Assembly: GCF_964213995.1 (NCBI RefSeq)
Contig: NC_135826.1
Location: 9,114,001 to 9,178,000 of the forward strand
Source: Mustelus asterias
Taxonomy: Eukaryota
Length of the DNA stretch: 64,000 nucleotides
Direction of reading: 5' to 3'
The notes under the pieces are model-generated. The model had not been told where the DNA came from and ran no database searches. It worked only from the letters and a program-made list of their open reading frames with translations. The number at the start of each line of letters is the position of its first letter. Within the stretch, counting starts at the first letter, position 1. Shown here in pieces: positions 1,513 through 41,526 of the stretch. Position numbers and translations under genes: made by a program.

Positions 1513-1590
1513 ATTGGTTAGTATAAAAACAACTACCACCACCTGATCAGTATATAAATGTATTGCACAAGCTGCTACAAGAGAGGAGGT
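1513..1590 (+). promoter_or_regulatory. Candidate promoter and non-coding exon 1 of perilipin A
   Basis: ATTGG 1513, TATAAAA 1522, TATATAAA 1551, donor G|GTGAGT at 1589; same layout upstream of copy C. Confidence 0.55.
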
Positions 1591-2065: not shown

Positions 2066-2131
2066 GATTTTTATTCCCTTTTAAAATGGTGACCCCTTTT
2101 TAACCTCCTCTGCAGATATCATTGGCTCAGC

Positions 2132-5100
2132 ATGGCATCCACAACAGAAGAACAGCTTTCCAAAGTTGCAGAAAGCCAAGAAAGTGGTAACCAGGTAGTT
2201 ACTGCTAGGGGTATGATGGAATGAAATGTTAACATATTTTAAATGTACTTTAGTTGCTTGGATAGGAAAGAGCCAAGTTTTAGTAACATGTCTGTCTTGG
2301 CTAAATAACCAAGCAATCAGCTGTGCAGTGAGTTGGGTCTAACATTTTAATTCTATTGAGTTAACTGCCATGAAGTCTCCTGAAGAAAATAGAATTGTTA
2401 GCAATTAAGGCATTTGGTTCAATTAAATTTCTTAAATATACAATTAAATGTTTTAGCTGTTTGACTTGGAGTACTGAATAATGCCTAAAATTATGGCAGT
2501 TTCCCTGATTCATCCAAATTCCCAAAGAGTGTAATTTAATTTCACTCTAATTAAAACTTTCAAACTCTTGAAGCTGCTAATCTAATATAATGCCCTTATT
2601 TCAAATCAAACCCTGGAGTGAAGACCACTGCATATGTTGGGGTCAAAAATGGTCTCCAGAATTTGGCTAGAATTTTTAAAGGTGCAATATACTTATAGAT
2701 CTGCATGTTACATAACTTGTAATCATCAGATTGAGCTGCCACATCCCAATGTGTTACAGGCCCTTGTTGAAACTGGGAATCTAGTGACCCTGAGTGATGT
2801 ACAAGGTCAACTGGAACAAACTAAAGCTGTTGTGGTTGAGGATGCCAGTATTGTGTGTCGACTTGTGGCGACTGGTGTGGATATTTCTCTCATCAAACCT
2901 GAGGAACTAGTTGATCACTACCTTCCTGTGACCAAGGAAGAACTAGGTATCTAAACTTTGTACTGTCATCTTTTATAAATCAATTTTTAATCATTGCTGA
3001 TCTTCAACCTGAAGACTTGACTTCCTTTCTATTTCAGCTTTGGCTAAAGTGGCCACTCCTATTGATGGTTCTGATACAGCAACAGTAGTGGAACAGAATT
3101 ATGTACGTTTGGGATCTTTATCCTCTAAGGTTCGCAATCGTGCATATGAGTATTCTGTAGCCAAAATACAGAGAGCCAAGGAGATTGGCCAGGAAACACT
3201 CTCTCATCTCCAAAACCTTGTAGATCTGGTAAGACAAGTCTTGATTGTAGATGCCACATTAACTGTGCTTGAGAAACTGCATCTAGTAAAATTCCTGTTT
3301 ATAGTGGCAGGCAAACTCATTAGGAAAGTTGTGCTAATTGAGTCTTGCATGGACTAATTGGGCTGATTTAACCATTCTGTGAAATATGGTTGCAACAGTT
3401 TTTACTTGTTTCCTTCCCCATTACCTGATAAATCTCTTTGCATGCTATGCCTTGATATCCTTTTCCTCTGCATCTGAGATTCATGCTTGATTCTTCAATT
3501 CTCAGTGGTCTCTGTATGAGGATGCTTCTGTTAAGTTAACCCAACAATTTTTGGGATTCTTCAATAACATAACTTGTCATTGTATTTCCAGATTGAAATA
3601 ACCAAGAAAGAGGCTGAATCAGCAAACAAACTACAAGATATTCAAGTCAAACTAAATCGGGTCCTACTCGACTGGAAAAAACACCAGCCAAGTGATCAAG
3701 CTCAAGAGGAACTGTCTGAAAAACCTGAAGTAAGAACTTGATATCCAATAATAGTCTCACACTTCTAACCAAGAGACATGAAAGGGCAGCCATTCTGGTG
3801 AAGGTTTTCTCCTGACTGTCTTCCCCTCTACCGTGGCTACGTTCGCGGCCAGGTGTCCCTGGAGAGGGAGCATGCGGTGTCCACGGGCGAGGTTGACGCT
3901 TTCCGTGCCCGCTGGGCACCACGGGTTGGGGTGCATTATTGACCCTAATAATCACATTTTAATTTGATGTTTTTAAGTTTCCTTTGTACTTTGATTTCTG
4001 TTCGGGCTGTTCCCCCTCCTTTTTGGGGAGCTGCCCCTTTTACTTTGTTCTGATTTAATCTGAGTTTGTTTACTTGGTTTGGTTTGACCTGAAAAGAGGA
4101 CAGCAATTATAAGCAGGCCATTCTTCCCTAATGAAGTTGGTTACTTAGTACTAGCCCTGCCACTAATAAAACAGTGCAGCAAAATCTTATCCTTCCAAAA
4201 GGTCAACCTTGGATGGGGTTGGTTTCCTTCAGTGGAACTAATTTTAAGGTGTCAATACCTTGGGCCTTTAACTCCAAGAAGAGTCGGCTGTTAATGCAAC
4301 ATTTTGTCCTTCAGTCAATACTAAAAACACTAGGGGCTATTCCATTTGCCCAGAACTTGCTTTCAACAAAACATCCATCCAAGATGTATCTTGAGCATTA
4401 GTGATGTGAAGGTGTATGTGCAAAATTGGTGGGAGAATATATGATGGAAGCTTTTGAGGATGAGGTTCAAACTAGGAAGGAATGGATCAGTTGGATTTGG
4501 TGCCAGTTTTGGAATGGCGTGACATCAAATTTTTGGAAGGCTGGTCAGGAAACTGAAAATAATAGGGATTACAGGGAGATGGGTCTTGGTGACATGGGGA
4601 CTTTCAGAAGTTCATCTTCGTTAAATGACAAAAGTTGCAAACTGTCTGGATGTTAGCTGGTGTCTCCTTTGAAGGGGCAGAGGACTTATCATTTCCTCAT
4701 GACTCACCCCAAGTTTCCAAAGTAACAGCTACTAAAAGGGTTATAGGCTTGAAACTAAATTTCATTTTTAATATTGCAGCAACTTGAAACCCAGTCACTG
4801 GCTGTGACTCAGAATTTCTCTGATCAACTCCAAACCATCTGCCGAACACTGGCTTCAAATGTTCGTGGTTTGCCTCAGAATATTGAGGATCAAGTGCAGC
4901 ATGTGTGTAAACTGGCAGAAGAGATCTACAGCACTCTTTCGTCCGCCACCTCTTTCCAAGATCTCTCCACACAATTCCTGACCCAGAGTAAAGAGCAAAT
5001 GCTGAAGATCCATGAGGGACTGGAAGGGGTGATGGATTACCTGCTTCATGCCACACCTCTTAACTGGCTGGTGGAACCCTTCATCCCCCAGGTCACTGAA

Positions 5101-5181
5101 GAACCGAAGCATCTGGGTTCATCAATGAAGCAATCTGCGGTTGTGCCCCAAAAGAGGGAGGAAAAGGAGATTATTTCATAA
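2132..5181 (+). CDS. Perilipin-family paralog A (perilipin-2/3-like) lacking the PAT-domain exons, ~326 aa
   Basis: GT-AG exons 2132-2194, 2760-2946, 3038-3228, 3592-3729, 4780-5181 with compatible phases and no stops. Motifs [31 protein letters not shown] at 5306. Confidence 0.8.
3811..4097 (+). mobile_element. Tx1-clade LINE 3' fragment in last intron of copy A
   Basis: Matches 1160-1440 (CTCTACCGTGGCTACGTTCGCGGCCAGG..CACATTTT). Confidence 0.8.
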
Positions 5182-5822
5182 CTTCAGATTATTTATTGAA
5201 TGCATGATTATAGCTGTGGAATACATTAACTGCCTTGAATAAGAACCATGCTGAAAATTTCTTACTGATAAATTCTACTGTCTCTTGTATATACTTTCTA
5301 GTCATAATAAACAAATGCATACAAATTCCATTAGTCTGCCATTCTAATTTGTGAACAGGAATCTCCAAATTGACAAACCTTGGATATTGACCCTATTCCT
5401 GGTCATGTGCTGCAAGTAACCAACTTGCCTTGCTTTGTTCCATCTCTGCCCTTGTTCAGCAACAGGTAATCCTGGTCCTTTAACAGTGATCTCCAGCACA
5501 AGATACTTAGCCAACTAGCTCCTGTGTTTTAAGTTCATTCGATCAGAACTAATCCTTGCCTGGAAACATTGGTCCCATTTGGGGTATTAAACAAGCTGAG
5601 GCCTAATGCCCTCTATCCCACTCCAGCCAGCTGTTCATTCTCAATTTCCTAGTATAATGCTCCTTTTAATCTGATAATTGTCCTATCATATCTACCTTGG
5701 ATCCACTTATCCCATTGTGCCTGTGCTGGCTTTTTGAGCAATTGTGCTCTTTCAATAAGTTCCTCCTTGTCCAATTCCCTCTTAAAATTAATGGAATCTG
5801 TTTTCCATCAAGCCTTTGGGTA

Positions 5823-6699: not shown

Positions 6700-7125
6700 G
6701 CCTTTGGGTACAGCATCTAAATCCTCACAGCTCTGAAAATAAGATTCTCCTCATTCATTCCAATCATCGACGAAGGTGTTAAAGTTCTAACCTGACTGAC
6801 TCATTTGCCACAGGGAATATAATACCTAACCCTTCTAATTCAACCCTCATTTTCTTAAGTCTCATCCCCAGTAAACTTTCCCTTAAGTCGTTACATCTTT
6901 TCTGATGTGTGTTGCATAGAATTGCCCATAATCCTCCATGTGACACCCAACCACTATTCTCACATTTCTACTTTTATAATTCTATCCCTCTTGCTGTGTA
7001 ATCCTTGCCAATTGGCTTCCTTTCTGCACCTTATCGATTGTATAGAACATAGAACATAGAACAGTACAGCACAGAACAGGCCCTTCGGCCCACGATGTTG
7101 TGCCGAGCTTTATCTGAAACCAAGA

Positions 7126-8642
7126 TCAAGCTATCCCACTCCCTATCATCCTGGTGTGCTCCATGTGCCTATCCAATAACCGCTTAAATGTTTCTAAAGT
7201 GTCTGACTCCACTATCACTGCAGGCAGTCCATTCCACACCCCAACCACTCTCTGCGTAAAGAACCTACCTCTGATATCCGTCCTGTATCTCCCACCACGA
7301 ACCCTATAGTTATGCCCCCTTGTAATAGCTCCATCCACCCGAGGAAATAGTCTTTGAACGTTCACTCTATCTATCCCCTTCATCATTTTATACACCTCTA
7401 TTAAGTCTCCCCTCAGCCTCCTCCGCTCCAGAGAGAATAGCCCTAGCTCCCTCAACCTTTCCTCATATGACCTACCCTCCAAACCAGGCAGCATCCTGGT
7501 AAATCTCCTCTGCACTCCTTCCAGCGCTTCCACATCCTTCTTATAGTGAGGTGACCAGAACTGCACACAATATTCCAAATGTGGTCTCACCAAGGTCCTG
7601 TACAGTTGCAGCATAACCCCACGGCTCTTAAACTCCAACCCCCTGTTAATAAAAGCTAACACACTACAGGCCTTCTTCACAGCTCTATCCACTTGAGTGG
7701 CAACCTTTAGAGATCTGTGGATATGGACCCCAAGATCTCTCTGTTCCTCCACAGTCTTCAGAACCCTACCTTTGACCCTGTAATCCACATTTAAATTAGT
7801 CCTACCAAAATGAATCACCTCACATTTATCAGGGTTAAACTCCATTTGCCATTTTTCAGCCCAGCTTTGCATCCTATCTATGTCTCTTTGCAGCCTACAA
7901 CAGCCCTCCACTTCATCCACTACTACACCAATCTTGGTGTCATCAGCAAATTTACTGATCCACCCTTCAGCCCCCTCCTCTAAGTCATTAATAAAAATCA
8001 CAAAGAGCAGAGGACCAAGCACTGATCCCTGCGGCACACCGCTAGCAACCTGCCTCCAATCCGAAAATTTTCCATCGACCACCACCCTCTGTCTTCGGTC
8101 AGACAGCCAGTTGCCTATCCAATCGGCCAACTTTCCCTCTATCCCACACCTCCTCACTTTCATCATAAGCCGACCATGGGGGACCTTATCAAACGCCTTA
8201 CTAAAATCCATGTATATGACATCAACTGCCCTACCTTCATCAACACACTTAGTTACCTCCTCAAAAAATTCTATCAAATTTGTGAGGCACGACTTGCCCT
8301 TCACGAATCCGTGCTGACTATCTCGGATTAATCCGCATCTATCTAAATGGTCGTAAATCCCATCCCTAAGGACCCTTTCCATCAATTTACCAACCACCGA
8401 AGTAAGACTAACCGGTCTATAATTACAAGGGTCATTTCTATTCCCTTTCTTAAACAGAGGAACAACATTCGCCATTCTCCAGTCCTCTGGCACCATCCCC
8501 GTGGACAGCGAGGACCCAAAGATCAACGCCAAAGGCTCTGCAATCTCATCCCTTGCCTCCCAAAGAATCCTAGGATACATTTCATCAGGCCCAGGGGACT
8601 TATCGACCTTCAGTTTATTCAAAACTGCCAAGACATCCTCCC
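7126..8642 (-). CDS. CR1 ORF2, reverse transcriptase half
   Basis: KSPGPD, NYRPVSLTS, DFSKAFDKV, GVPQGSVLGP, FADD, RPHLEYC; uninterrupted ~500 aa. Confidence 0.92.
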
Positions 8643-8806
8643 AGTATACAGCGGGCAGCGTCGGGAGCGGGCAGTGTAGTGTGTGGGAAGCAGAGTGTGA
8701 GCTATAAGACTTTGGCTCACAGGGCTTAGGCAGAAAGGGCGAGTAGGGGTGAGTTTGAATTCATTTTTGCACTTTCTACCTGGTACTGGCAAGGTATCTA
8801 GAGGGG

Positions 8807-9733
8807 ATGGGTGTGCAGGCAGTGCAATGTTCCTCTTGCACTATGTTTGAGGTGAGGGACGACGACAGTGTCCCTACTGATTACACCTGTGGGAAGTGCA
8901 CCCATCTGCAGCTCCTCCAAAACCGTGTTAGGGAACTGGAGCTGGAGTTGGATGAACTTAGGATCATCAGGGACGCAGAGATGGCCATAGACACAAGCTT
9001 TAGGAATACAGTTACTCCGGGGATTGAAAACAGATGGGTGACGGTGAGAGGGGCTGGGAGGAAGCAGTCCGTGCAGGGATCCCCGGTGGTCGTTCCCCTT
9101 AGCAACAAGTATTCCGCTTTGGATACGGTTGAGGGGGATGACATACCAGTGGGGAGCCGCAGTGAGAGGATCTCCAGCACTGTGTCCGTCTCTGTGGCTC
9201 GGGAGGGAAAGGGGGAGAGCGGGAGGGCGATAGTTATTGGGGACTCGTTAGTTAGAGGGATAGATAGGAGGTTCTGTGGCAGCAAAAGAGACTCACGGAT
9301 GGTATGTTGCCTACCGGATGCCAAGGTCCGTGATGTCTCAGACCGTGTTTTCCAGATTCTGAAGGGGGAGGGGAAACAGTCACAAGTCGTGGTGCACATT
9401 GGTACCAATGACATAGGTAAGAGAAGGGACGGGGATTTAAAGCAGGAATTTCTGGAGCTGGGCTGGAAGCTGAGAGCCAAGACGAAACATGTGGTCATCT
9501 CTGGTACGTTGCCGGTACCACGTGATAGCGAGTTGAGGAACAGGGAGAGAGTGCAGTTAAATATGTGGTTGCAGGGATGGTGTAGGAGGGAGGGTTTCAG
9601 ATACGTGGATAATTGGAACACGTTCTGGGGAAGGTGGGACCTGTACAAACAGGACGGGGTGCACCTGAACCAGAGGGGCACCAATATCCTCGGAGGGAAA
9701 TTTGTTACGGCTCTTCAGGGGGGTTTAAACTAA
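8807..9733 (+). CDS. CR1 ORF1 (CxxC zinc finger, coiled coil, SGNH esterase)
   Basis: CSSC..CGKC, leucine heptads, IGDSLVR, HIGTND, DGVHLN; 308 aa intact. Confidence 0.88.
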   Translation: MGVQAVQCSSCTMFEVRDDDSVPTDYTCGKCTHLQLLQNRVRELELELDELRIIRDAEMAIDTSFRNTVTPGIENRWVTVRGAGRKQSVQGSPVVVPLSNKYSALDTVEGDDIPVGSRSERISSTVSVSVAREGKGESGRAIVIGDSLVRGIDRRFCGSKRDSRMVCCLPDAKVRDVSDRVFQILKGEGKQSQVVVHIGTNDIGKRRDGDLKQEFLELGWKLRAKTKHVVISGTLPVPRDSELRNRERVQLNMWLQGWCRREGFRYVDNWNTFWGRWDLYKQDGVHLNQRGTNILGGKFVTALQGGLN

Positions 9734-11134
9734 TTTGTCAGGGGAGTGGGAAAGGGAGTTGTAGTCCAGAAGTCAGTGAGGGTGGTGAGGTATTGGGGAA
9801 GGTATCAGGGTCAAGGGTGGGTACTGGTAGACAGGAAGGTGGGTTGAAGTGTGTCTACTTCAATGCAAGGAGCATCCGGAACAAGGAAGATGAACTTGGG
9901 GCGTGGATTGGTACTTGGGACTACGATGTTGTGGCCATTACGGAGACGTGGGTAGAACAAGGACAGGAATGGTTGTTGGACGTTCCGGGGTATAGATGTT
10001 TCACTAAGTGTAGGGAAGCTGGTAAAAGAGGTGGAGGAGTGGCATTGTTAATCAAGGATAGTTTAACGGCTGCGGAAAGGCACTTCGTGGGGGATCTGCA
10101 CACTGAGGTAATATGGGCTGAAGTTAGAAATAGGAAAGGAGCGGTCACGTTGCTAGGAGTTTACTATAGGCCCCCAAATAGTAATAGAGATGTGGAGGAA
10201 GAAATTGCTAAGCAGATTATGGATATGTGTGGGGGTCACAGGGTAGTTGTCATGGGGGACTTTAACTTTCCAAATATTGATTGGAACCTTTGTAGGTCAA
10301 ATAGTTTGGATGGGGCAGTTTTTGTGCAGTGTGTGCGGGAGGGTTTCCTGACACAATATGTGGATGGGCCGACTAGAGGTGAGGCCACATTGGATTTGGT
10401 ACTGGGAAATGAACCGGGCCAAGTGTTAGATTTGGTTGTGGGAGAGCAATTTGGAGATAGTGACCACAATTCGGTGTCTTTTGTTATTGCAATGGAGAGG
10501 GATAGGGCTGTACGGCAGGGCAAGGTTTACAATTGGGGGAGAGGTAATTATGATGCGATTAGGCAAGAATTAGGGGGCATAAGTTGGGAACAGAAACTGT
10601 CAGAGAAAGGAACTAATGAAAAGTGGAATTTTTTCAAGGAACAAATACTGGATGTCCTTGATAGGTATGTTCCTGTCAGGCAGGGAGGAAATGGCCGAGT
10701 GAGGGAACCATGGTTCACAAAAGAGGTGGAATGTCTTGTGAAAAGGAAGAGGGAAGCTCATGTCGGGATGAGGAAACAAGGTTCAGATGGCTCGATTGAG
10801 GGTTACAAGTTAGCAAGGAATGAGCTGAAAAAGGGGCTTAGGAGAGCTAGGAGGGGACATGAGAAGTCCTTGGCGGGTCGGATCAAGGAAAACCCCAAGG
10901 CTTTTTACTCTTATGTGAGGAATAAAAGAATGACCAGGGTGAGGTTAGGGCCGGTCAAGGACAGTAGTGGGAACTTGTGTATGGAGTCAGTAGAGATAGG
11001 CGAGGTGATGAATGAATACTTTTCTTCAGTGTTCACCAAGGAGAGGGGCCATGTTTTTGAGGAAGAGAAGGTGTTACAGGCTAATAGGCTGGAGGAAATA
11101 GATGTTCGGAGGGAGGATGTCTTGGCAGTTTTGA
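9720..11134 (+). CDS. CR1 ORF2, APE endonuclease half
   Basis: YFNARS, ITETW, YYRPP, GDFNFP, LDLVL, SDHN; ends EDVLAVL, where the RT half begins. Confidence 0.9.
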
Positions 11135-12164
11135 GTATAAACTAGGGTTGATTTGTATAATACTGTTCCTTTGCAGTCTCTTGGTCAAAATCCTGGCATT
11201 CCCTCCCTATTGGCAGTGTGGTTCAACCCACTGTGTGGACTGCAGAGTTTCAAGAAGGACAACTAAGGATGGGCAATAACTGCTGGCCAGCCAGTGACAC
11301 TCATGTCCCACAAACCAATAAAATATTCAAGGCCTCAGATCACCATGAACAGAGGCACATAGTGATGGTGGAAGGGATTTTGCAAGATTGGGGGTCATGG
11401 CTGGGGAGGGGGCAGCAGCAAGGTCAAGGGGTGACTCTCAGCAGGCTGGATCCCTTTGGGTTTCCTGGGTAGAACCTTTCTTTCTCACTGCTGGGTGAAT
11501 ACTAGCAGTGGCAAGATGCTGCCCCTAAGTGGGCATTGCCCATTTAAGCATTGAATTGGCAATAGGGTAGGGAGGCTGTCCAGTGGCCTTGCCACCATGG
11601 TCTTAATTGAGGCCATAGCAGGAAGGCAGCATGGTGCCCTTCTGCCTAATTAAATGCCCCCACCTTCAAACTCCTCATGGTGGAGGGCATTCAATTTTGC
11701 CCGTTGTCTCCTGTATGTCTGCCACCCAACCATCTCCTAATTTGCATTTGCATATTATTTCAATCATTCTATTATTTTTCAAGTATGTCTGTATTCCCCC
11801 CCCCCCCCCTTCCCCGGTCTCTTGTCCTGTTATAAAATGCTATTTCTTTGTAAACTCTCGACACACAATTCACACACTCAAAGCGAGTCTCTTCTCTCTA
11901 GATGCTGTCTGATCTGTTGAGTGTTTCCAGCATTTGGTGTTCTTGTTTTAGATTTCCAACAGCTGCAAGAGTTAGCATTTGGGCAGTTTAAAAAAACACG
12001 AATGGTCAGCACACCAACAGACTTCCATTACAAACACCCTGGAATGTTTTCAGGCCCAACTGGACGGTGCCACGGGGAGATTAGGGCTGAATATGACTGA
12101 ACTGAGTCAAATAGTCTCCCTCGCCTAATAATGAACTTCTAATTTGTCTTGTGACTGTACTAGT

Positions 12165-13187: not shown

Positions 13188-16100
13188 ATGGAGTCAGAAG
13201 TGGCAGAAAACATTGAGGTCTCCAAACCTTCCGAGCCCCAGGAGAACGGGGAACAGCAGGTACTGGAAGTGTGGGTTTTTAACTTTCGATTTTGTAGACT
13301 AGTTACTAAATACTGTAATCTAAAGTATAGTCTGAGGAAATCCTCGCCATTGTGTACTGTTGGGATCTGTGTATTTGTAAATTTCTTACTACTGCAATCT
13401 TAAAAAGGTGGCTTGTGAAATCCCCTCCATTGTGTACTGTGTGGATCTGTATTTACTGTCTGACTTGGTGACCTATAGCCCAGTTACTAAATACTGCACT
13501 CTAAAGGGTGGTCTGAGAAATCCTCACCATTATACAGGTTAAGATGATGAATTGCTTTCACTTCTGATGGGAAGTATTACTCACTGATTCAAACACTGTG
13601 GTTGTGTGACCCTTGGCCTAGTTTGCAACAAACTTGAAATACAAAGCTATAAAATTCGTGTGTGTTTGTGGAGGAGCTTATTTTGCCTCGGGAGAAAAAC
13701 TAAGCAGCGAACTTAGAATGTGACATCCATGCTCAGTTGTTATCCTTTTTTTTTTCTCTCCAAATTACCCACAGTCTGAAAGACATGCTAACCAGGGGAT
13801 TTTCACTGACTTCATTGCAGCATTAATGTCTAATTACTTGTGACACAAATGTTTATTCCTTGTGCTTTAATGAGGCCAAAACTGTTTAAAACATAATTTG
13901 TATTCATTTTAACTAATGGGTGGATGAGAAGGTGGTGTTGTCTAGGATTTGAAGTGGGGGAGGACAGATCCAGAGTAGCGCTTAAAATAACAGGAGTTTG
14001 CCACCAACTAAATGAAGGGATGAGGAGGTTGGGATAGAGGAGCTTGTAGAATGAGGTGGGGGAGGGGAGGAGTAAATCTTGTGCAGCTGTGAAAATGAGG
14101 ATATCTTGGGATTTTGTCTTGCTGTTTGGGTGACCTTTACCCTTTTCTTCCCCATTTGGCCTGCTGTATCCATGGTTCCTGTAAGAGCTTCTCGTTCCTT
14201 TTTTCTCTCCTTTGTCCTGGTCTTTCACTTGTAACGAGCAAAATCTCCTTGAAGGGCCTCAATTGAATCTGCTTCCTTTCACCACTGTTTTGGGGAATAC
14301 ATTCCATCTCCCAACCCTGTCATGTGAGACTTTATCCTCCTGTTATTGAGGTGGTTTTTTTTTTGCTAATTGCTATTCTCAGTCCTCCTCCTAAAAAGAT
14401 GCCAATGGGAGCAGTTTTTTCCTGTTTACTCTGTCCAGATCCCTCCCAAAGCCTCTATCAGGTTGCCATTCTTATGAATCTTTTCTGCATCCTCTCTCTG
14501 CCATTCACCACCTTCCTACAGCTGCCTTGCATTGAACACAATACTCTGGTGGAGACTGAACCAACAAATTTATGATAGCCTTTTGTATGGATCCCATGTG
14601 CTTTATTAGCCACTTTCTCAGCCTGCCCTGCCACCTTTTTAATCCTGTGTACATGTGTTAGCTAAGTGTGTTCAAAATGAGACAATACAGTTCTTTTTTT
14701 AAAAAAAAAAACCTTTGTTCATGCTGTCTGGTGTAAGGAAATGCAAAGATTTCATTAAAACAGGGTGAGGGGATAGGACAGGATCAATATCCTGGAGGGG
14801 CTAAATTTAGATATGCAACTAAAGAATTCCTTTTTGGGATGCAGCTTCTGTCTAGTGTTCAAAATTAAATTGGGGAGGAGGGAAATGGGATTGGTATTTG
14901 ACTGGAATGTCTAATTCCTTATAGCTGGCAAATACTGACCCAAAACAAAATTTAAAACTTAATGCTGGAAATAAGGCTCCTGCAGCATGTGGAGAGAGAT
15001 GGAAGAGTTGATATTTTGTGGTTAATAACCCTTTTCTGCCTGCAATAACTCCAAACTGGTTGAGCCTGAGTTAAGGTACAGCATCTAAAGTGGTAGCTAT
15101 AAACTATATGTACTAGGAAGAAATGCATGAAATACTTGCAATAAATGTACAAATTGATGTACTAAAATCCTTGCATAACCATCTTTTTAGGATGGTTGTG
15201 CAATCCATCTTGTATTTCCTTGCACTGTGAATGGGAAGTTGCTACAAGTCCAACTGACCTTCCTAGAATGATGCTGAGAAGCATTGCATCATTGGAATGA
15301 ATTACTGTGATTTGGCAATTCCATGACTTGTGTATTTCAGAATGTGGTGAGCCGAGTGACCAACCTGCCTCTTGTGAGTTCAGCCTATGACATGGTATCA
15401 GCTGTGTACAACAACACCAAGGAGAACCACCCATATGTGAAGACTGTCTGTGATGTTGCTGAGCAGGGAGTGAAGACTATCTCGGCTGCAGCTGTCAGTG
15501 GCGCCAAGCCAATTATAGACAAGCTGGAACCTCAAAGTAAGATTGGAGCTTGCATTACTTCAGTTGGCTGGAATTCAAACCTAAAATTTGCCCCTCAATG
15601 GGGGCTGGGTGTTTAAAAATAAAATAATTGAATATACTGCACCAGGACCCCTGGATACATGGGACCTCTTTCTGAATTATAAGTTTATTCAAACCTGCCT
15701 TTTGGGCAGATGAGCTTAACTTGGTACCCAGTGATATTTAAAAGGAACTAGAACTTCCCAAATAAATGATAAATTATTCTTGAAGCTCTTTATAAACTGG
15801 TATGAAATAAATTATTTACCAAGTATGATTAAGTTACAACTTCTAATTGTCACATGGCTTCACCCAAGTAAAGGAATACACATTCAAGTGTGAGATTTAA
15901 AGTCTATGCCCTGAAGGGGATTTGTTTTCTATTGAACTCTGCCTAACTGTGCATGGTGGAAGATTTTGGGTATGTATCACTGACTTTCTGGGGGCCCCCA
16001 GACCTATTGGGTGGCTGCAATGGATCCTGCTACTGTTTTTTTTCTAAATTAAAAGCAAGATGTCCAATAGTTGACCCTCAACCAGATTTGGCCACATTTG

Positions 16101-19100
16101 GACTTTATGGAGGTTTGTTGCTGTAGTGACTACTTTTGTTGGTCTGCCAAAAAGGCTAGTTGCATGCAGCTGTTGTACACAGCATCTGCTGCTAAACACT
16201 AGGAATTATTGCTTCATGAAGGAAAAGTGGGAAGTTATTTTCTGAGATCCAAGAATGGAAGGTACAGGCTGAAAGATTTGCATATTGAAGATTCAATTTC
16301 ATAAGTGGCAAATAAAAGCTGCAGAGTTCCAGTAGTACTAATCAACTGTGCTTTATTCAAAAGCTCCACTTTTCTGACTACTTAGAATCTGCAGTGCAGA
16401 AGAAGGTCATTTGGCCCATCAAGCCTGCACCGACAACAATCCCACCCAGGTCCTATCCCTGTAACCCTGCTAATCCCCCTGACACTAAGGGGCAATTTAT
16501 CATGGCCAATCAACCTAACCAGCACATCTTTGGACTGTGGGAGGAAACTGGAACACCTGGAGGAAACCCCCCACAGACATGAGGAGAATGTGCAAACTCC
16601 ACACTGTTGCCTAAGGTTGGAATTGAACCTGGGTCCCTGGCACTGAGGCAGCAGTGCTGATCACTGCACCACCGTGCCACCCTTGTTCCTTTCTAGGGAC
16701 TACTGAAAAAATTAATTGTAAAGAATCTTAGACACTTCAAGCTTTGCTTTGTACAACCCTTGGTCTGTCAGTCTAAGCTGGCAACCATGAAGTAGTCATG
16801 CACCACTTGGCTCTGATACACTTTGAAATCCAAATGCAGGCTTTGTTCCCAAGTAAAAATTTGGCTACTAGCATTTGTCGCTATGACATTGCACCAAAGC
16901 AGATGGGGTATTGCTGTATTGTGGGCCAATATAGGACATCCAATTTCCACTGGAATTCAGTGAGGAGTGGCTAGATTGTGGTTTATAAGATGCTGAACGG
17001 TCTGACAGTGGGGAAAGATGTATCCTCTTATGGGCAAGTCCCAGAACTAGGGGGCGCAGTTTTAAAATTGGGGATCACCCTTGGGCAGGGAGGAGAAATG
17101 TTTAGGATTGTCCATCATTGGAACTCTGTCTTAAAAGGTGGGGTCACTGATTTATTTTTAATGTGGAGGTAGATTGATTCTTGTTGGGCAAGGGAATTGC
17201 AGGTTACTGGGGGTAGATGGAAATGTAGCACTTGCAACATTAACAAATCAACCATGATATTGAATGGTGGAGCATTCACAAGGGATCAAATTCTGCTTTT
17301 TTTGTTTGAATCTGGTTTCAAAAGCTAAATGTACAACATTACATAATGTGTAAAATAATGACTGACTTTCAATTTCCCAACCCTTCAATAACTTGTAGCT
17401 AAACTTTTGAAGTAAGCCAACTGGATAATGAGATTTCACACTTTGGTTTGTCTCTAAGCAAAGGTTCTTCTGTGCTTAGTTACAGCTGCCAATGAATTTG
17501 CCTGTAAAGGCTTGGATAAACTGGAAGAGAAGCTTCCAATTCTTCAACAGTCCACACCCCAGGTAAGGAAATTATTGATTTTAAGGTACCTAGCTTTCAA
17601 ATGGATTGTAATGTACCATTGTAGATTACTGGAACAATCCACTTGAATCACTTTACTGTAGTGGCTGGTGAAACCACCAAGTTGTAACTTCTAACTCCAT
17701 CTTTAATTATCTACTTGGGTGGTGTTTCAACTTATCACCTAACTAGTTTTTTAAAAATGTCTATTTTTTGCTGGACCCTCATGTACAAGTTTAAAAAGAA
17801 ATTGAAATGTCAGTCAATATTTCAATGTCTGGATTTGGGTGTATGGAAGGAATCTAATTGCACAAGTCAATCTGGCAGATTCACCAGTTTCATCGGAATG
17901 CATGCATATTTTTTGGAATTGCCTCCTGTCCTGTGTGGATTGAGTTAAACAGTGAGGACCCAAGTGCTCACCCAAAACTGGATGTTTGCCCTCTTGCTAT
18001 GAACTGCATTGTCATCTTTTTTTTATAAATACAGGTTGTTGCTGATACCAAAGAGCTGGTTTCATCTACAATAACTGGAGCCAAAGATGCCGTCTCCAAC
18101 ACAGTGACTGGGGCTAAAAATACAGTGACTGGTGTAGTGGACCTGGCCAAGGGGACAGTGCATGGTGGCATTGAAAAGACCAAGACTATAATGGCTGAAG
18201 GAGTTAACACTGTCATGGCATCCAGAGTAGGGCAGATGGTGGTCACTGGGGTGGACAGTGCACTCAATAAATCTGAAGAGATGGTTGATCATTATCTTCC
18301 TATGACTGAGGAGGAGCTGGGTAAGAGGATTCATTTTGCTACCTCCTGCTTGAATTGGGATGCTTTTCTAATGGCCTTGGTGCCCTTAATCCTACCTAAG
18401 TGGTCAAGTTGGGTTTTGCATGCATTATACTCTATATACTGTCAACCTTGAGCATATATCCACCCCTCTCTGCAGAACACTTGTTTTTTAAACAGGAAGT
18501 GACATCGTTTGTTGGCACTTATTCCACTAACAATTCATTTCCTGCTTTTAAACTTCCCAATAAGGGAAATGGGTCTTGGAAAGTTCACGGTTGCATTCAC
18601 TTCATCACAGGGAATTTTGGAGCTCTTTGACTCTAGTTCTCCACCTTATTCCCAAGGTCCCTAACAGCCAAGAGCAAAATCCTTCTGTAGAGAAGGTTTG
18701 AGACTGCAGACACTTTCCATTAGAAGCCTTAACTGACATTTAAATGCCAGTTTAGCCAAGTATATTCCATTATCCGTCTGAGTTGAGAACATGGGATTGG
18801 GAGGGTGGAAGGAAGTTGAACAGTACTATTGTTCATCAAACTTGGAATGTAAAACCTGTCTTGAATAACAATTGTAAATCCTCTTGTTTCAGCAAAACTG
18901 GCTACCTCTGTTGAAGGCTTTGAAGTGGCCCCAGCACAACCACCAAGTTACTATGTGCGTTTGGGATCTTTATCTTCAAAAATTCGTCATCGAGCATACC
19001 AGCACTCCATTTCCAAGATGCAGCAGGCCAGGCAAAGCAGCCAAGACATTATGACTCAGCTTCACAGCACAATGGATCTGGTAAGAATACATACTGCTGG

Positions 19101-22100
19101 TGATCCTTGTGCTCCTGGGTGGTTTTGATTTGGCCAATAATGATAGCTGGGCTAAGGATCTTTCATCTATCTTGACTATTGGAAGGAATGTGCTCCTCCT
19201 TTTAAAAAGCTGGTGTCAATGTAATATCACTAGACAACTGAAATTTAGTCATATTTCTTTACACAACATCACTTTAACAGTTTGTTTGCATTCCAATTGT
19301 CCAAACTGGTCCCTCTGCCAATTAAGATAAGACAGCCAGGTCCAAAATGACCATTGAATTGAATAGTAAATGCTCCAATTGCCATTTGATGTCTTGAGCT
19401 GCATGTCAAAGCTACCACCCCAGGATTAGACTTCTCCTTTGCTCTATAGCTTGGGAGCATGCCCACACTCCCCAACCAAGGTTCACCAGGCCAAGTAGTC
19501 AAGGAATGTCTGCCTCACAACAATAGATTTGGTAAGATTGCTGTGTGGCATTGATCCACTACACTGCATGATACCACCCCAAGAAAATTCCTCACTTTCA
19601 GTAAACCATTGCTTGTTTTTGGCCACTCTAGATGTCACACTTTATTCCAATGGCTGGGTTCAAACGCAACTAAACAGGACCTGCTGTTGGGGTCAAACAT
19701 TTGGAAAGCCAAACAGTAAACATTGCCTGTCAATGACCCTTCATGTTGTTGTAATGAAAGTCATTGACCTGAACTTGCTGCTTTCTTGCTGTACTCATTG
19801 TAACAAATCTAGACTGAACTTTCTCAGCCCCCTTAGCTCAGTGGAGGGGTGCCTGGTGAAAACATTAAGGATCCATATCGACCAAGCCTGCCCACTACTG
19901 AATGGAGTCAGGCAACCAATTAAAATATTAACCAAAGACTCAGTGGTATTTTGCTGACATCAGAGTCTCTGTTGCTAACCTGTCTCAGCAGTGCCCATCT
20001 CTTCCCTTGGCGGCTGCTGGAGCTGCCATCTCTGAATCTGGCCAGCAAAATCAGAGGCCCATCTGCCATCCTTGAGATAACAGAAGTGACTCATTTGGAG
20101 GTTGTTTACAAGGGGAATAACTCAAATAGCAAACTGGCTCCCAGCAAATGCAGGTTCAGCATACATATTTTCTGGGGTCCTGAAGCCTGTGGAGGGAATC
20201 CTACCCAATATCTTTAACTTGTTGGCCTTCAAGACTGGCTGCTGTTGCACTGAAATGGGGTATGGAGAGATTGTACTTGGCTTTTGTCAAGTCAATTTGT
20301 CAACGTTATGACCAGCATGTTTGTTACTCTTTTGCAGATTGAATTGACAAGGAAAGGAGTAGATTCAGCAAATCAGAAGCTGCATGACGTTCAAGACAAA
20401 CTGCATCAGACCTGGGTTGATTGGCAGAAAAAACAACCAAAAGCTCAAGTGGAAGAAGAGGCTCAGAAACCGGAAGTAAGGATTCGATTTTATTCTTGGG
20501 ATCAGTGGGTGTAGATTGGGGCAGCTATTGTACAGAACCTTGCTATCAAAGGAAGGGCTTTGATTCTGATAGCCACTATACATTTTTTCAATTCCTTTAT
20601 TATATTCAAGAATAAATCCCTTCATTTCAAAGTTATTAAATTTGAAAGAATGCTTGTTTCTACTTGGTTGGTTTGTGATACCTGACATTTGCCATGTTGC
20701 CCGGACAGGTAGAAAGCTTGCCTTTGTGCAAAGTTCCAAGTGGTATTTTCCCCTTCTGGCCATATAATTGGGCAATGCAGCTACTCCAGTATCCCTGATT
20801 TTGAGAATGGGTTATTGACAATCTGCAACTATTGCATTGATACTTTCAATTCCTCTCTTCCTAGAAAAACAGTGACTTTCTGGGGCCAGCACCTCTCCCA
20901 GAAGCCATTTGTGCTTGGCCAAACTGGCCAGTGGGTTCTTTAAGACCTGTAGGGATTTGCATTCTAATCAGTATTCTGCAACTTGATTTTGTCTGTTTGC
21001 ACTGTTTGAGAGCACATTTCCACTCCATCTGACGAAGGAGCAGTGCTCTGAAAGCTTATGGTATTTGCTACCAAATAAACCTGTTGGACTTTAACCTGGT
21101 GTTGTGAGACTTCTTGCTGTGTTCTGTGTTCTTTAAGACCTATCAGGGAGGGCAATGTAGCTATATGGCTTTTTAATTTTTTAAAAAATTGTCTAGTATT
21201 GGCAAGAGTTGTAGAATCTCTTTCTTGCCTTGAGTGGAGCTGCTGCCTCGAAGTGCTGTAATCCTTTGTAGGGATGGTGTGACTTGGAGGTGACAGAACA
21301 TTGCTGCTCTTCCTCTTTCTGGTAGAAATGAAGTTCTCCCAGAGTAAGATTGATCGATTGAAATGCTGCAGTATACTGGGAATGAATATTAGTCCATGAC
21401 AATACATTGTTGCTGCTCCAGCCTGGTTGAGATGCACAATTGGTCATATAGGCTGCTACTTGTAGGTGGCATAGGAGGGCCAATTGCTGCTGCTTATGAC
21501 CAGACTGGTTGCTATTGTCTCCATTTTCAAGATGATTCCATAGGAAAACTCAATATTGGAGGTAGTCTGTCCTGGGTGGTCATTCCCTGCTACTTTGATC
21601 TACCTGCCTTCTGTCAGGCAAGGCTTTGATATTTTCAGCCAGAATGCCTAGATAGTGATTGTGATGGGAACACCAGCTTTTCTTCCAGTTCCCTACATCC
21701 TTCCACTGAGCTGTTTGAGTTCAATTGTTACTGAGGCATCCACTAACAAGGCACGGGTCGTAATCTAAGCAGACAACTTTCTAATGTGACTTTAAACTTG
21801 CAACTGCTCATTAGAACTCCTGTGGTGCAGTCAGGTTTTACTCTAGAAAGCTTGAGACCCTTTTAAAAAATGTGTCTTTTAGCCAGCACCAAAAGGTGAC
21901 CAAATTCTAAGTGTTTCTTTTTGTATTGCAGCAACTTGAGTCCCAGATGCTAACTATGACCCGCAGCCTCACCCAGCAACTACAGACCACCTGCCTGACC
22001 TTGGTTTCAAACATACATGGCCTCCCTCAGCATGTACAAGAGAAAATGCAGCAGATCCGCAACACTGCAGAGACCATCCACACCTCCTTCTCCTCTGCCA

Positions 22101-22297
22101 ATTCCTTCGGTGATCTCTCCGGGCAGCTCCTGGCACAGAGCCGAGAGCAAATGCTGAAGATCCGGGAATCCATGGATGGGGTGATGGACTACGTGCTTCA
22201 CAACACTCCCCTCAACTGGATGGTGGGTCCATTTGCCCCACAGCTAACTGAGCGCCCTCAGTCAGAGGAGATTGAAATGGATAAAGTTAAAGAATAG
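13188..22297 (+). CDS. plin3: Perilipin (perilipin-3/perilipin-2-like), full length, ~442 aa
   Basis: Exons 13188-13259, 15341-15536, 17480-17562, 18035-18320, 18893-19080, 20338-20475, 21932-22297, all GT-AG and in phase. PAT domain [34 protein letters not shown], 11-mer repeats, helix bundle, [10 protein letters not shown]. Symbol inferred from HDGFL2 adjacency; the sequence also has PLIN2 traits. Confidence 0.9.
13469..14143 (-). promoter_or_regulatory. Cluster of three DR1 (PPRE-like) elements in intron 2 of perilipin B
   Basis: AACT-GGGCTA-T-AGGTCA (13469-13485), AACT-AGGCCA-A-GGGTCA (13607-13623), AGGGTA-A-AGGTCA (14131-14143). Confidence 0.65.
16380..16683 (-). mobile_element. HE1/V-SINE-like SINE (CR1-type tail)
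   Basis: Same head, core and tail as 12165-12485. Confidence 0.78.
21016..21115 (+). ncRNA. Penelope-like terminal repeat with minimal type I hammerhead ribozyme motif
   Basis: 21025-21061: CCAT-CTGACGA-A-GGAGC-AGT-GCTCT-GAAA-GC-TT-ATGG, then AATAAA. Confidence 0.65.
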
Positions 22298-36981: not shown

Positions 36982-39900
36982 ATGGCATCAACAACAGCAA
37001 ATGTTGCCAACACTACAGAGGGCCAGGAAAATGGAAGCCAACAGGTACAGCCTGTGTAGAGAGTATTAGCTTGTTTAATCAGTCAGTAAAGCTGTTTCTC
37101 TAAGTATAAGCATGTTAGCAAAATTGCAATGCTAGTTTCAGTAATACTCAATTCTTGACCTCCCCGAGGTGTATAAACTGACTGACTTCTGCCAAATTTT
37201 GATTCTATTGGTAGCCCCACAATCTTCTGCCTGATTACCCTCCCTATATTTATTTAAAAGAAATAATAAATGCAGCTGTGTAACTCACTAGCTTGTGCAT
37301 TTGTCTTTGATTGGAGGTAACTTGGGATGATTGCAAGTCAGTTGATTTTTAACTAAGGAGGTGGTGTTGCCAGTGGACTGGTAATCCAAGGAATCTTCTG
37401 GAGACCTGAGTTTGAATCTTTCCATAGTAAAATGTCTGGAGTTAAGTCTTGTCAGTTAGATTCGGAGGTTTACAGCATGGAAACAGGCCCTTCAGCCCAA
37501 CTTGTCCATGCTGTCTTTTCAACTAGGCTAGTCCCAATTGCCTGCATTTGGCCCATATCTCTCTATACCCATGTGACTGTCTAAATGCTTTTTTAAAAGA
37601 CAACTTTACCCACTGCTACTACCTCTGGCAGCTTGTTGCAGACACTCACCACCCTCTGGAAAAAATTGCCCCTCTGGACCCTGTTGTATCTCTCCCCTCG
37701 CCTTAAACCTATGCCCACGAGTTTTGGTCTGCCCCACCTTTGGGGGGGGGGGAGAAGTGAGCCTTATCTATGCCCCTCGTTGTTTTATAGACCTCTAAGT
37801 CTCCTATGCTCCGGGGGGAAAAAAAGTCCCAGCCTCTCCTTGTGGCTCAAACCAAGGCCCAGTAGCATCCTAGTATATCTCGTGCAGTCTTTCTAGTTTT
37901 AATAATATCTTAATTGTTTTTTAAAACCCATCTTGTTCACTAATGTCCTTTTTTTGGGGAAGGAAATCTGCTGTTCTGGTCTACATCTGACTCCAGAGCC
38001 ACAGCAACATAATTGACTCTAAATGCCCCTGGAGATGGGCAATAAATGCTGGCCAAGCCAGTGATGTGCCGTGCCTCCCCTCCCCTCCCCTCTCATTCCA
38101 CAAATGTATTAAAAAGACTTATTTGATGTTTGCCTTGCTGTCAGAATTGAATAGTGGTGGTCCATGTTTTTGTAGAAGCCATTTTTCCAAGCAAAATCAT
38201 CTGTTTTCAAATCCTGGCTAGATTTCTGCTAAATGGTCATCATTAATGGAGGCCAAAGCTAATTTTTTTGAACAACCCTATATTTCAGAATGTGGTTGAT
38301 CGAGTGACGAGTCTGCCACTTGTGAGCTCTGCATGTGAGCAAGTATCTGCTGCATATGTGAGCACCAAGGAGAGCTCTCCTGCTGTGAAGGCCATCTGTG
38401 ATATGGCTGAGCAGGGAGTGAAGACCATCTCTGCTGTGGCTGGTGCTAAACCAATTCTCAACAAGCTGGAACCTCAAAGTAAGATGAGTCGGGGTTTTGG
38501 AAATACTAGGCTTGCTGTCCAAATATTGCAGCACAAAGTGGTACAGTGAGTGTGCAGTTGCTAATGCCTGCATTCTCTTGTAACTATTTTAGGATGTTTC
38601 TAACAAGTAAAGCTACTGGACAGTTTTGAGAAATCTAGTGTTAACTACCTGGTCATGACTGCAACCGAGTAGACTTGATGGGTCAGCTGCCTGTCAATAT
38701 TTTGTATGTTTCTGGGTACACCTTGCTTAAGTAAAGTAGACTGTTTAAAGTCACTAGTTCTTGGCTCTAGATATATCATGTGATTCATGGGCAGCACTCT
38801 TGGCCAAATTGCGAGCTAGCATGGAAGACTATTATTCCTTCCTGATCCAAGAGCAATATAATAACACCATTGATCATGTTCTACGTTCAGTTGCAGTAGC
38901 TAATGAATATGCCTGCAAAGGCTTGGATAAGTTGGAGGAGAAACTTCCAATCCTTCATCAAGCTACCGATCAGGTTAGTGCTATGATTCACCAGAGGGAA
39001 AATACTCCCCATAAGGAGCTGACAATGTTAGTCTCAATTCACTATTTTAGTATCATTCTATATTTAGATACTATTAATGTTAAATCTACCTGTGTTTATT
39101 AGCTTCTAGTCTTTTGAAGGATAGCAAGTGCCCCTGGTCCCAAGCCATCTTGGCTTCTAGTAAAAGATGGCGCCTCTACTGTAAACATAAAGGTTCTGGA
39201 ATTTTGCCTGAGATGACAAATGCTCTTTGTAATCTAAGGGAAAGTAAACTTGTTGACCTCTTGCAGGTCCTTGCTGAAACCAAGGAGCTTGTGACATCTA
39301 AGATGACTGATGTTAAAGAATCGGTGATGGGGGTTGTTGACATGACGACCACTGCAGTGCAAGGCAACCTGGAAAAAACTAAAGCTGCTGTGGGTCAACT
39401 TGTGGCTACTGGTGTGGATACCTCTTTCCTCAAATCTGAGGAGCTGGTTGATTACTACCTTCCTATGACCAAAGAAGAACTAGGTAATATAACGGTTATA
39501 TAAATGTTGTCTATTGGCTTCAGTGAGCCTAATGCCAGATTGAAAACTGATCTAATAAATATACATTTTCCAGAAACCCTTGGGGCAGCCCTTTGGGTTT
39601 TCTGCTGTCCCTTCTATTGGCTTTACAATATCCTACTAGCTGAAATTGCAGGTGGGAGAAAAGTAGTTACTGCAGCCTGAGATGTTCACTTTTCTTTCAG
39701 CTAAAGTGGCTGCTTCCACTGAAGGCTCTGCCTCTGCAGCAGCACAAGAGCAGAGTTATTATGTACGTTTGGGATCTTTATCATCTAAAGTTCGTAATCG
39801 TGCATACCAGTATTCCATCACCAAGATGCATAGAGCTAAGCAGAATGGCCAGGAGACCCTTTCTCATCTCCACAATCTTGTAAACCTGGTAAGGAAACAA

Positions 39901-41526
39901 CAGATTTCTGGATGCTGTATTGGCTGTACTCTTCAGATCAATATTGTGAAGCAATCAATTTCTGTTTCTAGTCTCCAACCCTGGATATGTTTGCTTTTAT
40001 GATTCCTGACAGCTTCCCCCGCACCCCCCCCCCCCCACCCCACTGGAAATGTTCACATCTTCGCAAAATTTACTTAGTCACTAAGCACACTTCACCCCCT
40101 AGAATACTTTTGACATTAATTCACTTTATTCTCTATATAAATTGTGCTGTTTTAGATTGAGATGGCAAAAAGAAGCACTGAATCTGCACACCTAAAACTT
40201 GAGGATGTTCGAGCAACTTTAAATCCGATCCTGTCTGAATGGAGAAAGCAGCAACCTGAGCAAGGCCGAGCAAAAGAGGAACTATCTGAAAAATCTGAAG
40301 TAAGTGCCCCAGTATACAGTCTGCCATAATGTGTCCACTTCCATCCCCCTCCATCACTCAGCATTCACTTTTTTGTGAAGAAATGATATTCCTACCTGCA
40401 ACTGCGTCTGTTGGGCACCACAGGGGTTGGGGTGCGTTATTGACCCTGACAATCACATTTTAATTTGATGTTTTTAAGTTTCCTTTCTACTTTGATTTCT
40501 GTTCGGGCTGTTTTTCTCTTCTTCTCCCCCCCCCCCCCCCCTCCTCCTTTTGGGGAGCTGCCCCTTTTTGCTTTGTCCTGACTTAATCTGAGTTTGTTTA
40601 TTTGGTTTCCTCTAAAGAGGACAATTGCCTACCTATGACCTGTTCATCCTTAACTCTTGCTATGACACTCACCCCTACCTGTGACATTTCACCCCTTGGA
40701 ATCTATCTAACTGATTGGAATTTTCTTTAGAGCACTAGAAGCAAAAAGACATCCTCAGAATTTCCTGTCTTAAATGAATGACCCCTTTGCCAGAGCTCTA
40801 AATTGCCCACAGAACATTCTCCCACATATCCAACGTTTTTTTTCTGATCGATGTTAAGTCAACTGGTCTGTACTTGTTTTGTCTCCTTTCCTGCTCAAAT
40901 TTCCTGAAATGCCTTGGGACCCATTCTGCTCCATCATAAACTAGACAAAATTCAATAGTATACCTTTGCCATCATTGATTTATTGTACCATATATTAGGC
41001 ATTAACTGACTTAAATGATCTCAGACCTTTATACCTGACTTTTCTGACAACTTCAAAATTCCTAAATTATAAATGCAAACAATTTTAGTATTTTCTGTTC
41101 CCTTCTGCTTGCCAATGGACAAATACTGGCTGAAATGGGTCTGGACTAAACTAGTTTTCTTTATTCCAGCAAATTGAATCTGAAACACTGGCTGTGACTC
41201 AGAATTTCTCTGATCAACTCCAAACCATCTGCCGAACGCTGGCTTCAAATGTTCGTGGTTTGCCTCAGAATATTGAGGATCAAGTGCAGCATGTGTGTAA
41301 ACTGGCACAAGAGATCTACAGCACTCTTTCGTCAGCCACCTCTTTCCAAGATCTCTCCACACAATTCCTGACCCAGAGTAAAGAGCAAATGCTGAAGATC
41401 CGTGAGGGACTGGATGGGGTGATGGATTACCTGCTTCACACCATCCCTCTTAACTGGCTGGTGGGACCCTTCATCCCCCAGGTCACTGAAGATCAGGAGC
41501 ATCTGGGTTCAACTGAAATGCAGTAA
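36982..41526 (+). CDS. Perilipin-family paralog C (perilipin-2/3-like), ~413 aa
   Basis: Exons 36982-37044, 38289-38478, 38891-38973, 39267-39483, 39701-39888, 40156-40299, 41170-41526, in phase with no stops. PAT domain [20 protein letters not shown] at 41670. Confidence 0.9.
37355..38070. mobile_element. SacSINE-like element split by an antisense CR1 3' fragment (~37455-37910)
   Basis: SINE head ~37355-37450 and tail ~37920-38070 flank sequence antisense to 45930-46490. Confidence 0.6.
40405..40620 (+). mobile_element. Tx1 3' fragment in last intron of copy C
   Basis: TGGGCACCACAGGGGTTGGGGTGC..AATCACATTTTAATTTGATG. Confidence 0.75.

Follow-up and report, generated by a model that had tools for sequence, protein, structure and literature searches.

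A cluster of five perilipin genes

The window analysed here is a stretch of 64,000 nucleotides of Mustelus asterias (contig NC_135826.1, positions 9,114,001 to 9,178,000 of the forward strand), and it forms part of a region in which five tandem perilipin genes, in the order B2-A2-A-B-C, occur within 214 kb. The four genes surrounding gene A, with positions in the window unless the contig (C26) is named, are as follows.

C26, about 9,069,769-9,085,516: B2, full length, upstream of the window
C26, 9,104,382-9,107,209: A2 (locus L018), PAT-less, 339 aa, open frame, 12 kb upstream of the window
13188..22297, + strand: B, full-length perilipin assigned to the PLIN3 lineage, 442 aa, 7 coding exons
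36982..41526, + strand: C, full-length perilipin of 413 aa with 7 coding exons, the sister paralog to A

Gene A has five coding exons, all with GT/AG ends, which join to 981 nt and encode 326 aa followed by a stop, a product that agrees letter for letter with P0002, the Mustelus asterias protein that the database calls perilipin-2-like. This is exactly the model drawn in an earlier note made from the letters of this DNA, in which the start exon joins the 11-mer exon in frame and the rest is free of stops; the promoter-like and poly(A) signals that it named are present as candidate words in the sequence. The features of A are these.

ATTGG at 1513, TATAAAA at 1522 and TATATAA at 1551, + strand: candidate promoter-like words, from sequence
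1513..1588, + strand: likely end of a non-coding first exon, with a GT donor at 1589, inferred from sequence
2117..2194, + strand: start exon, with ATG at 2132, 63 coding nt and a phase-0 donor; RNA-type contigs of a relative begin at 2114/2116
2195..2759, + strand: first coding intron, 565 nt, at the site of both PAT exons in B and C
2760..2946, + strand: shortened 11-mer (amphipathic helix) exon with the N-terminal part of the alpha/beta subdomain, 187 nt, phase 0
3038..3228, + strand: exon with cleft residue Y105 and the first bundle helix, 191 nt
3592..3729, + strand: exon with the helix between bundle helices 1 and 2, 138 nt
4780..5181, + strand: last coding exon, with three bundle helices, the closing beta strand and the stop, 402 nt
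5306..5311, + strand: AATAAA poly(A)-like signal, from sequence

A and A2 are tandem twins whose introns are about 6% diverged and differ by 28 indels. The promoter-like region of A (1513..1588) is near-identical in A2, and the 11-mer exon of A carries a 36-nt in-frame deletion relative to A2; the NCBI model of A2 (P0003) has a first exon different from that of the model made here. The two full-length genes B2 and B are 95-98% identical in their first four coding exons and 86-93% in the last three, which suggests gene conversion of the PAT half between them. In the intergenic DNA between A and B (7040-11142), long frames that resemble reverse transcriptase lie on opposite strands, and between B and C (29500-33750) there is a GC-richer segment with many overlapping long frames that is probably an LTR retrotransposon.

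Loss of the PAT exons from gene A

Both full-length genes of the window carry a pair of PAT exons (15341-15536, 196 nt, and 17480-17562, 83 nt, in B; 38289-38478, 190 nt, and 38891-38973, 83 nt, in C) placed after the start exon and before the 11-mer exon, each of which is in phase 0. Because 196 plus 83 and 190 plus 83 are both multiples of three, the loss of these exons preserves the reading frame. The claim that A lacks both exons was borne out in the genome: comparison by tblastn of the PAT segments with the 41.5 kb between the end of B2 and the start of B gave a best E of 0.41 and no remnant, and comparison by blastn of the 565-nt intron of A with the PAT regions of B and C gave as its best hit a 13-nt match (E 0.14). 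We do not count this 13-nt word, which the intron of A has in common with the PAT exons of both full-length genes, as a remnant, since its neighbours are not colinear.

Of the 403 positions of the profile PF03036 only 110-402 align to A, and C is matched from profile position 3; the score for A of 238 bits (curated cut-off 33) places it in the perilipin family by profile. The canonical architecture of PLIN1/2/3/5 is nonetheless missing from A, in which the PAT domain and its LEPQI motif are absent. The earlier note had treated the PAT and 11-mer parts as one targeting region; the PAT domain is indeed gone, but a shortened 11-mer exon is retained.

That the missing exons are an artefact of assembly or annotation, or that A is a pseudogene or a haplotype duplicate, we regard as hardly credible. 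The own-species DNA-type runs (X9 and X10) are probably the assembly's own sample, and their contigs cover parts of 2195..2759 with none spanning the entire intron, which counts in favour of this explanation. Against it, the 214 kb of the cluster are free of N, the equivalent first coding introns of the two copies measure 565 nt in A and 562 nt in A2 and differ by the divergence and indels given above, the spliced joint occurs in a relative, and an identical gap is found in four other genera. The absence of the exons is seen in genomic DNA for A and A2, the short forms of the relatives being predicted models.

Splicing of the PAT-less gene

Four runs of relatives, RNA-type by guess, were compared with A at 80% likeness. 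In two of them, X1 and X6, which represent one organism in two samples of one study (tissue not given), a single contig each passes successively through 2116/2114-2193 (start exon), 2756-2945 (11-mer exon) and 3038-3215 (next exon) without any PAT sequence in the gaps, and more than 70 letters lie on either side of the joint between start exon and 11-mer exon. The junction from 2194 to 2760 that had been predicted was thus found in RNA-type contigs of a relative, not in Mustelus asterias itself. A four-base shift at the joint in these contigs corresponds to one extra codon, also present in A2; as they lack the 36-nt insert of A2 they are A-type, and a second contig in each run, with the same joint and carrying the insert, is A2-type. 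In both runs the bins inside unique introns are at depth 0, and the depths in X1 were 9.5 for the A-type and 10.1 for the A2-type contig, depth being a poor measure here. The key joint is therefore bridged in two of the four relative runs; X1 and X6 also hold the joint 3228/3592, X2 bridges 3729-4780 only, and X4 covers the 11-mer exon without bridging the start-exon joint. The relative's contig stops at 5350, about 40 nt past the AATAAA of A. The runs X9 and X10 are patchy over exons and introns alike, without splice joints, and are mute on expression.

A further search for signs of a pseudogene found no stops, no frameshifts and no broken splice sites in A, and the relative supplies a spliced RNA-type contig. 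We have very high confidence in the gene lineage as a genuine, ancient and spliced one.

Lineage and origin of the loss

The main tree was built from the three middle exons of 44 rows and rooted on PLIN2, with PLIN1, PLIN5 and PLIN6 left out; the last-exon tree used 24 of these rows, and the topology tests with their ray-free tree used 16, the constrained trees coming from fast searches. Before tree building, three models were trimmed of N-terminal extensions and one fused model of its first half. The shark cluster grouped not with PLIN2 but with the PLIN3-like genes of coelacanth, bichir, caecilian and turtle (UFBoot 100). A separate PLIN2-like gene (L004/L027 on C2471), with 68-71% identity to coelacanth PLIN2, was found as a further perilipin locus, and this together with the PLIN3-like grouping makes the database name perilipin-2-like misleading. 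A UHRF-type SRA domain, the sole synteny marker family, lies on the same contig as the cluster at a distance of 5.7 Mb, which, set against the human gene order, may or may not reflect conserved synteny with the PLIN3/4/5 region. Judged by these sequences, the cluster belongs to the PLIN3/4/5 lineage and not to PLIN2. Distant PAT exons were also seen at L005 (C24) and L006 (C1732), with 37-42% identity to coelacanth PLIN2, and these loci may be PLIN1- and PLIN6-like.

Of 166 candidate proteins, 21 were matched in a last-exon search, six of them PAT-less models.

Mustelus asterias: P0002 (A) and P0003 (A2)
Scyliorhinus torazame: XP_072338049.1
Heterodontus: XP_067872003.1
Cetorhinus: XP_078410866.1
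Heptranchias: XP_067824775.1

A seventh short form makes up the second half of a fused model of S. canicula (XP_038632488.1), where it follows immediately on a B2-like gene, an order that matches that of Mustelus; model P0001 of this species (785 aa) fuses a B2-type gene with the PAT-less gene behind it, likely by an annotation merge. In all short forms the PAT gap aligns at the identical exon boundary, and each short-form species also has a distinct full-length C-type protein among the listed matches. Among the best 120 of 1396 matches listed, the short form was absent for Rhincodon, Hemiscyllium, Chiloscyllium, Carcharodon and Pristiophorus, which may reflect loss or absent annotation.

The rays Hypanus, Hemitrygon and Mobula (P0019-P0021, P0125-P0127) share a conserved relative whose PAT region is alignable but eroded, acidic and proline-rich, with 16% hydrophobic residues as against 32-33% and with PGPQP or PGPQF at the position of the LEPQI motif; their isoforms also skip the helix exon that precedes the last exon. 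These forms stand on a long branch and their placement in the tree is uncertain, and no ray C-type with an intact PAT domain occurred among the best 120 of 1396 matches listed. Two further observations concern the PAT region elsewhere. The C-type proteins of Carcharodon and Cetorhinus (P0015, P0017) read LELQF at the DAG motif and miss three residues behind it, so that the PAT domain may be altered in the C genes of lamniforms too; and a PLIN3-like coelacanth model of 331 aa (P0052) begins at the end of the PAT region and may represent a tandem copy that was modelled incompletely, or else a further gene without PAT.

In the main tree the full-length Callorhinchus gene is sister to the A-type and C-type genes together (UFBoot 100). 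The short forms group together with a support of 88 when the rays are included and 65 when they are not, the galeomorph short forms reaching 98. In topology tests, grouping the middle exons by species was rejected (AU p 2.5e-54), as was an independent origin of the short form in Heptranchias (AU p 0.018), whose placement has modest support. These trees favour a single loss of the PAT domain, in an early shark before Heptranchias parted from the other sampled sharks. On the simplest history, an early elasmobranch would have duplicated a pair of genes B and C, both full length as they are in the chimaera Callorhinchus, and the C gene of the new pair would have lost two exons (190 and 83 nt, between phase-0 ends) once. 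The history of modern sharks extends over more than 200 million years.

Predicted fold of the PAT-less protein

The claim that A encodes a protein of about 326 aa that is mostly helix bundle agrees with the alignment of residues 59-301 with the C-terminal crystal structure of PLIN3, 1SZI (E 1.4e-48), the only solved structure matched by sequence. The same structure was the sole match at E<=0.001 to the AlphaFold model of A (E 8.5e-9), in which the mean pLDDT is 57.8, the bundle is confident and residues 1-75 are under 50. Helices are modelled at 113-154, 192-220, 226-248 and 257-283 and strands at 75-79 and 294-299, and A is accordingly predicted to keep the C-terminal four-helix bundle with its alpha/beta subdomain. 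The cleft residues reported for human PLIN3, F236, S343, S346, S347 and W416 (PMC13382019), correspond to Y105, T216, S219, N220 and W289 of A in the 1SZI alignment, with the offset inferred; A has at these five positions the same residues as B, C and the PLIN2 relatives.

Probable gene conversion in the last exon

The last exon of A has a history of its own.

4772..5138, + strand: tract 93% identical to C 41162-41531, likely gene conversion

Identity between A and C in the other exons is 73-84%, and dS between them is 0.115 in the last exon as against 0.76-0.98 in the two preceding ones. In the last-exon tree A, A2 and C of Mustelus fall together (97), as do the short and C forms of Scyliorhinus (82), and a grouping of this exon by paralog was 55 log units worse (AU p 0.058, KH 0.037, SH 0.04). 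Given the AU value, the case for conversion leans on dS and identity too. Taken together, repeated gene conversion between the A lineage and C in the last exon is likely. Within this exon (5069-5095) A and A2 share a change from G to E in the closing beta strand (WLVEPF), the other 42 of the 44 rows having G.

Selective constraints after duplication

Values of dN/dS were used for the pair A/A2 and for the last three exons only, the five-gene alignment having misplaced the start exon of A against B and C. The earlier note had set a dN/dS near 1 as refuting its reading, and the outcome was divided: the lineage is constrained, with values of 0.20 and 0.32 between A and C in the two unconverted exons, whereas copy A is weakly constrained, the A/A2 value being 0.62 (p 0.095) with 34 amino-acid differences where 38.5 are expected under neutrality (p 0.23). 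Of the indels between A and A2, none of the four in exons breaks the frame, against 22 of the 28 in introns (Fisher p 0.006). No exon frameshift was observed where 9.7 would be expected from the intron rates, all three indels placed on A by outgroups are in frame, and there is no stop, an outcome with a chance of 0.09. The frame of the A lineage is thus kept under selection.

The two copies have not changed equally. Polarising the changes against five outgroups assigns 23 to A and 8 to A2 and leaves 3 ambiguous (p 0.011); with C as outgroup the ratio of nonsynonymous to synonymous changes is 15:4 on A and 4:4 on A2, and the branch lengths are 0.114 and 0.033. Eight of the changes on A lie within residues 37-78, adjoining its 12-residue deletion, and near-invariant sites are hit by G49D, G54C, S68P and M78V. 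The 11-mer segment measures 45 aa in A, 57 aa in A2 and 78 in B, and the best helix moment of A (0.26) is the lowest of the 12 shark and chimaera rows scored, the other short forms reaching 0.31-0.42; the other six short forms keep a helix segment of 50-62 residues with moments like those of C. Sequence divergence of this kind marks A as a fast, relaxed or re-specialising twin of A2.

One explanation of these figures keeps the lineage functional but takes copy A to be redundant, a young duplicate in decay while A2 does the work. We consider this unlikely. The A/A2 ratio that is not significantly below 1, the excess of nonsynonymous changes on the longer branch of A and the hits at conserved sites speak for decay, while the frame intact in every exon, the in-frame indels set against the introns, and the spliced A-type contig of a relative at a depth like that of the A2 type speak against it.

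Function of the PAT-less perilipin

What the protein does without its PAT domain can be approached from mammalian work, in which PAT is credited with DAG sensing and the 11-mer helix with binding to packing defects. The PAT domain is reported to bind DAG through the LEPQI motif and to draw PLIN3 to ER budding sites, and PLIN3 losing E86 gave no DAG response but still reached droplets in wild-type yeast (PMC10694602). The isolated bundle bound PE-containing artificial droplets at about 50-70 nM (PMC13382019), and PLIN3 helix plus bundle bound droplets very stably in yeast, which required the alpha/beta subdomain, the bundle alone being divided between droplets and cytosol in HeLa (10.64898/2026.08.15.745046). 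By analogy, DAG-rich ER budding sites would not attract an A-type protein, and a bundle with an intact PE cleft and a short helix would bind existing droplets. A DAG-blind droplet coat, holding mainly by the alpha/beta and four-helix-bundle domain, is the reading of the PAT-less shark perilipin that we prefer, and we regard the case for it as about evenly poised. A targeting of A different from that of the full-length perilipins, as had been proposed, is plausible. Two reports count against a bundle-anchored coat: Plin3-C was cytosolic only in Huh7 and HeLa (PMC6589688), and PAT and 11-mer were both required in cells, the 11-mer alone remaining cytoplasmic (PMC10238389).

The same cytosolic behaviour of Plin3-C is what a soluble lipid carrier or buffer would show, in which the closed bundle stays in the cytosol with a fatty acid or phospholipid in its cleft. 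Conservation is strongest in the bundle with its cleft while the helix of A erodes, the ray relatives eroded PAT and helix further, and fatty acids are said to be bound within the clefts of the PLIN2 and PLIN5 bundles (second-hand, from the introduction of 10.64898/2026.08.15.745046). The helix segments of the other six short forms, with their C-like moments, tell against such a carrier and suggest that surface binding is still selected, and we judge it improbable. Copy A may depart from its lineage in this respect: since it changed faster and its helix eroded further after the recent A/A2 duplication, it is likely a more cytosolic, bundle-only or fading copy.

A decoy role, suggested earlier, would make A a competitor on the droplet surface or for partners that blunts B and C. 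Perilipins compete for the droplet surface (PMC6589688), N-truncated Plin2 gave smaller droplets (PMC12921128), and a last exon kept C-like could preserve a shared partner surface. The weak binders are nevertheless those displaced in competition assays (PMC6589688), and conversion with a neighbouring gene's exon requires no functional cause, so that we see very little likelihood in this proposal.

Returning to the droplet coat, the setting in which it would act is particular, for sharks are reported to have no adipose tissue and to store fat in the liver (PMC4037211), and a special coat protein could therefore bear on their physiology. The contributions of PAT, 11-mer helix and bundle to droplet targeting are disputed (PMC6589688 against 10.64898/2026.08.15.745046 and PMC13382019) by studies that use cut fragments, and the shark gene encodes a natural PAT-less protein that selection has maintained beside its full-length sister throughout the history of modern sharks. 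Sharks and rays offer a natural graded series: C (full), A2 (no PAT), A (no PAT and half the helix) and the rays (eroded PAT).

Comparison with known perilipins

The nearest known system is PLIN3 (TIP47), or the ancestral plin3/4/5 gene, which shares with A the lineage, the bundle with alpha/beta fold and the cleft positions; unlike PLIN3, A is without PAT domain and LEPQI DAG motif and its 11-mer segment is shorter. The engineered PLIN3-AH-4HB has nearly the same domain content as A and was very stable on droplets in yeast (10.64898/2026.08.15.745046), but it has the full-length human helix region, whereas the helix of A reaches roughly half that length and has a lower moment. Truncated forms of PLIN2 (the macrophage Plin2-S without 1-44 and an engineered loss of 1-89) resemble A in that PAT sequence is gone and the rest kept; they are described, second-hand through PMC12921128, as giving smaller droplets, the 1-89 form escaping degradation. 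These are, however, cleavage products or constructs, and shark A is a separate, genomically fixed gene that we place in the PLIN3 lineage. No description of shark perilipins or of a PAT-less shark gene was found in the open full-text literature, and the words 'shark' and 'cartilaginous' do not occur in the main text of PMC5342826.

PLIN4 (S3-12) is a PAT-less perilipin too (PMC13753571), born by tandem duplication in the plin3/4/5 cluster of tetrapods (PMC5342826), and because the shark cluster is placed in the PLIN3/4/5 lineage the shark PAT loss parallels that of mammalian PLIN4. The origins are nevertheless independent, the shark form nesting with shark C and the full-length chimaera gene (UFBoot 100). 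PLIN4 has 29 repeats of 33 residues and a bundle that is without the alpha/beta subdomain and does not bind droplets, whereas A, with a shortened helix and the subdomain present, does not fall within PLIN4. A wider reading, which we offer tentatively and with more doubt than belief, is that elasmobranchs hold a new class of perilipin, a mirror image of PLIN4 that gave up DAG sensing and serves with bundle and cleft as a coat or carrier for liver oil stores, DAG sensing having been lost, as part of that same tentative whole, by exon deletion in sharks and by erosion of PAT and LEPQI in stingrays and devil rays. If true, the class would be a dedicated coat or carrier for very large stores of liver oil. 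The shark PAT loss itself is a second, independent one in the cluster that gave PLIN4, and one of opposite design, in which the folded bundle rather than the long helix was kept.
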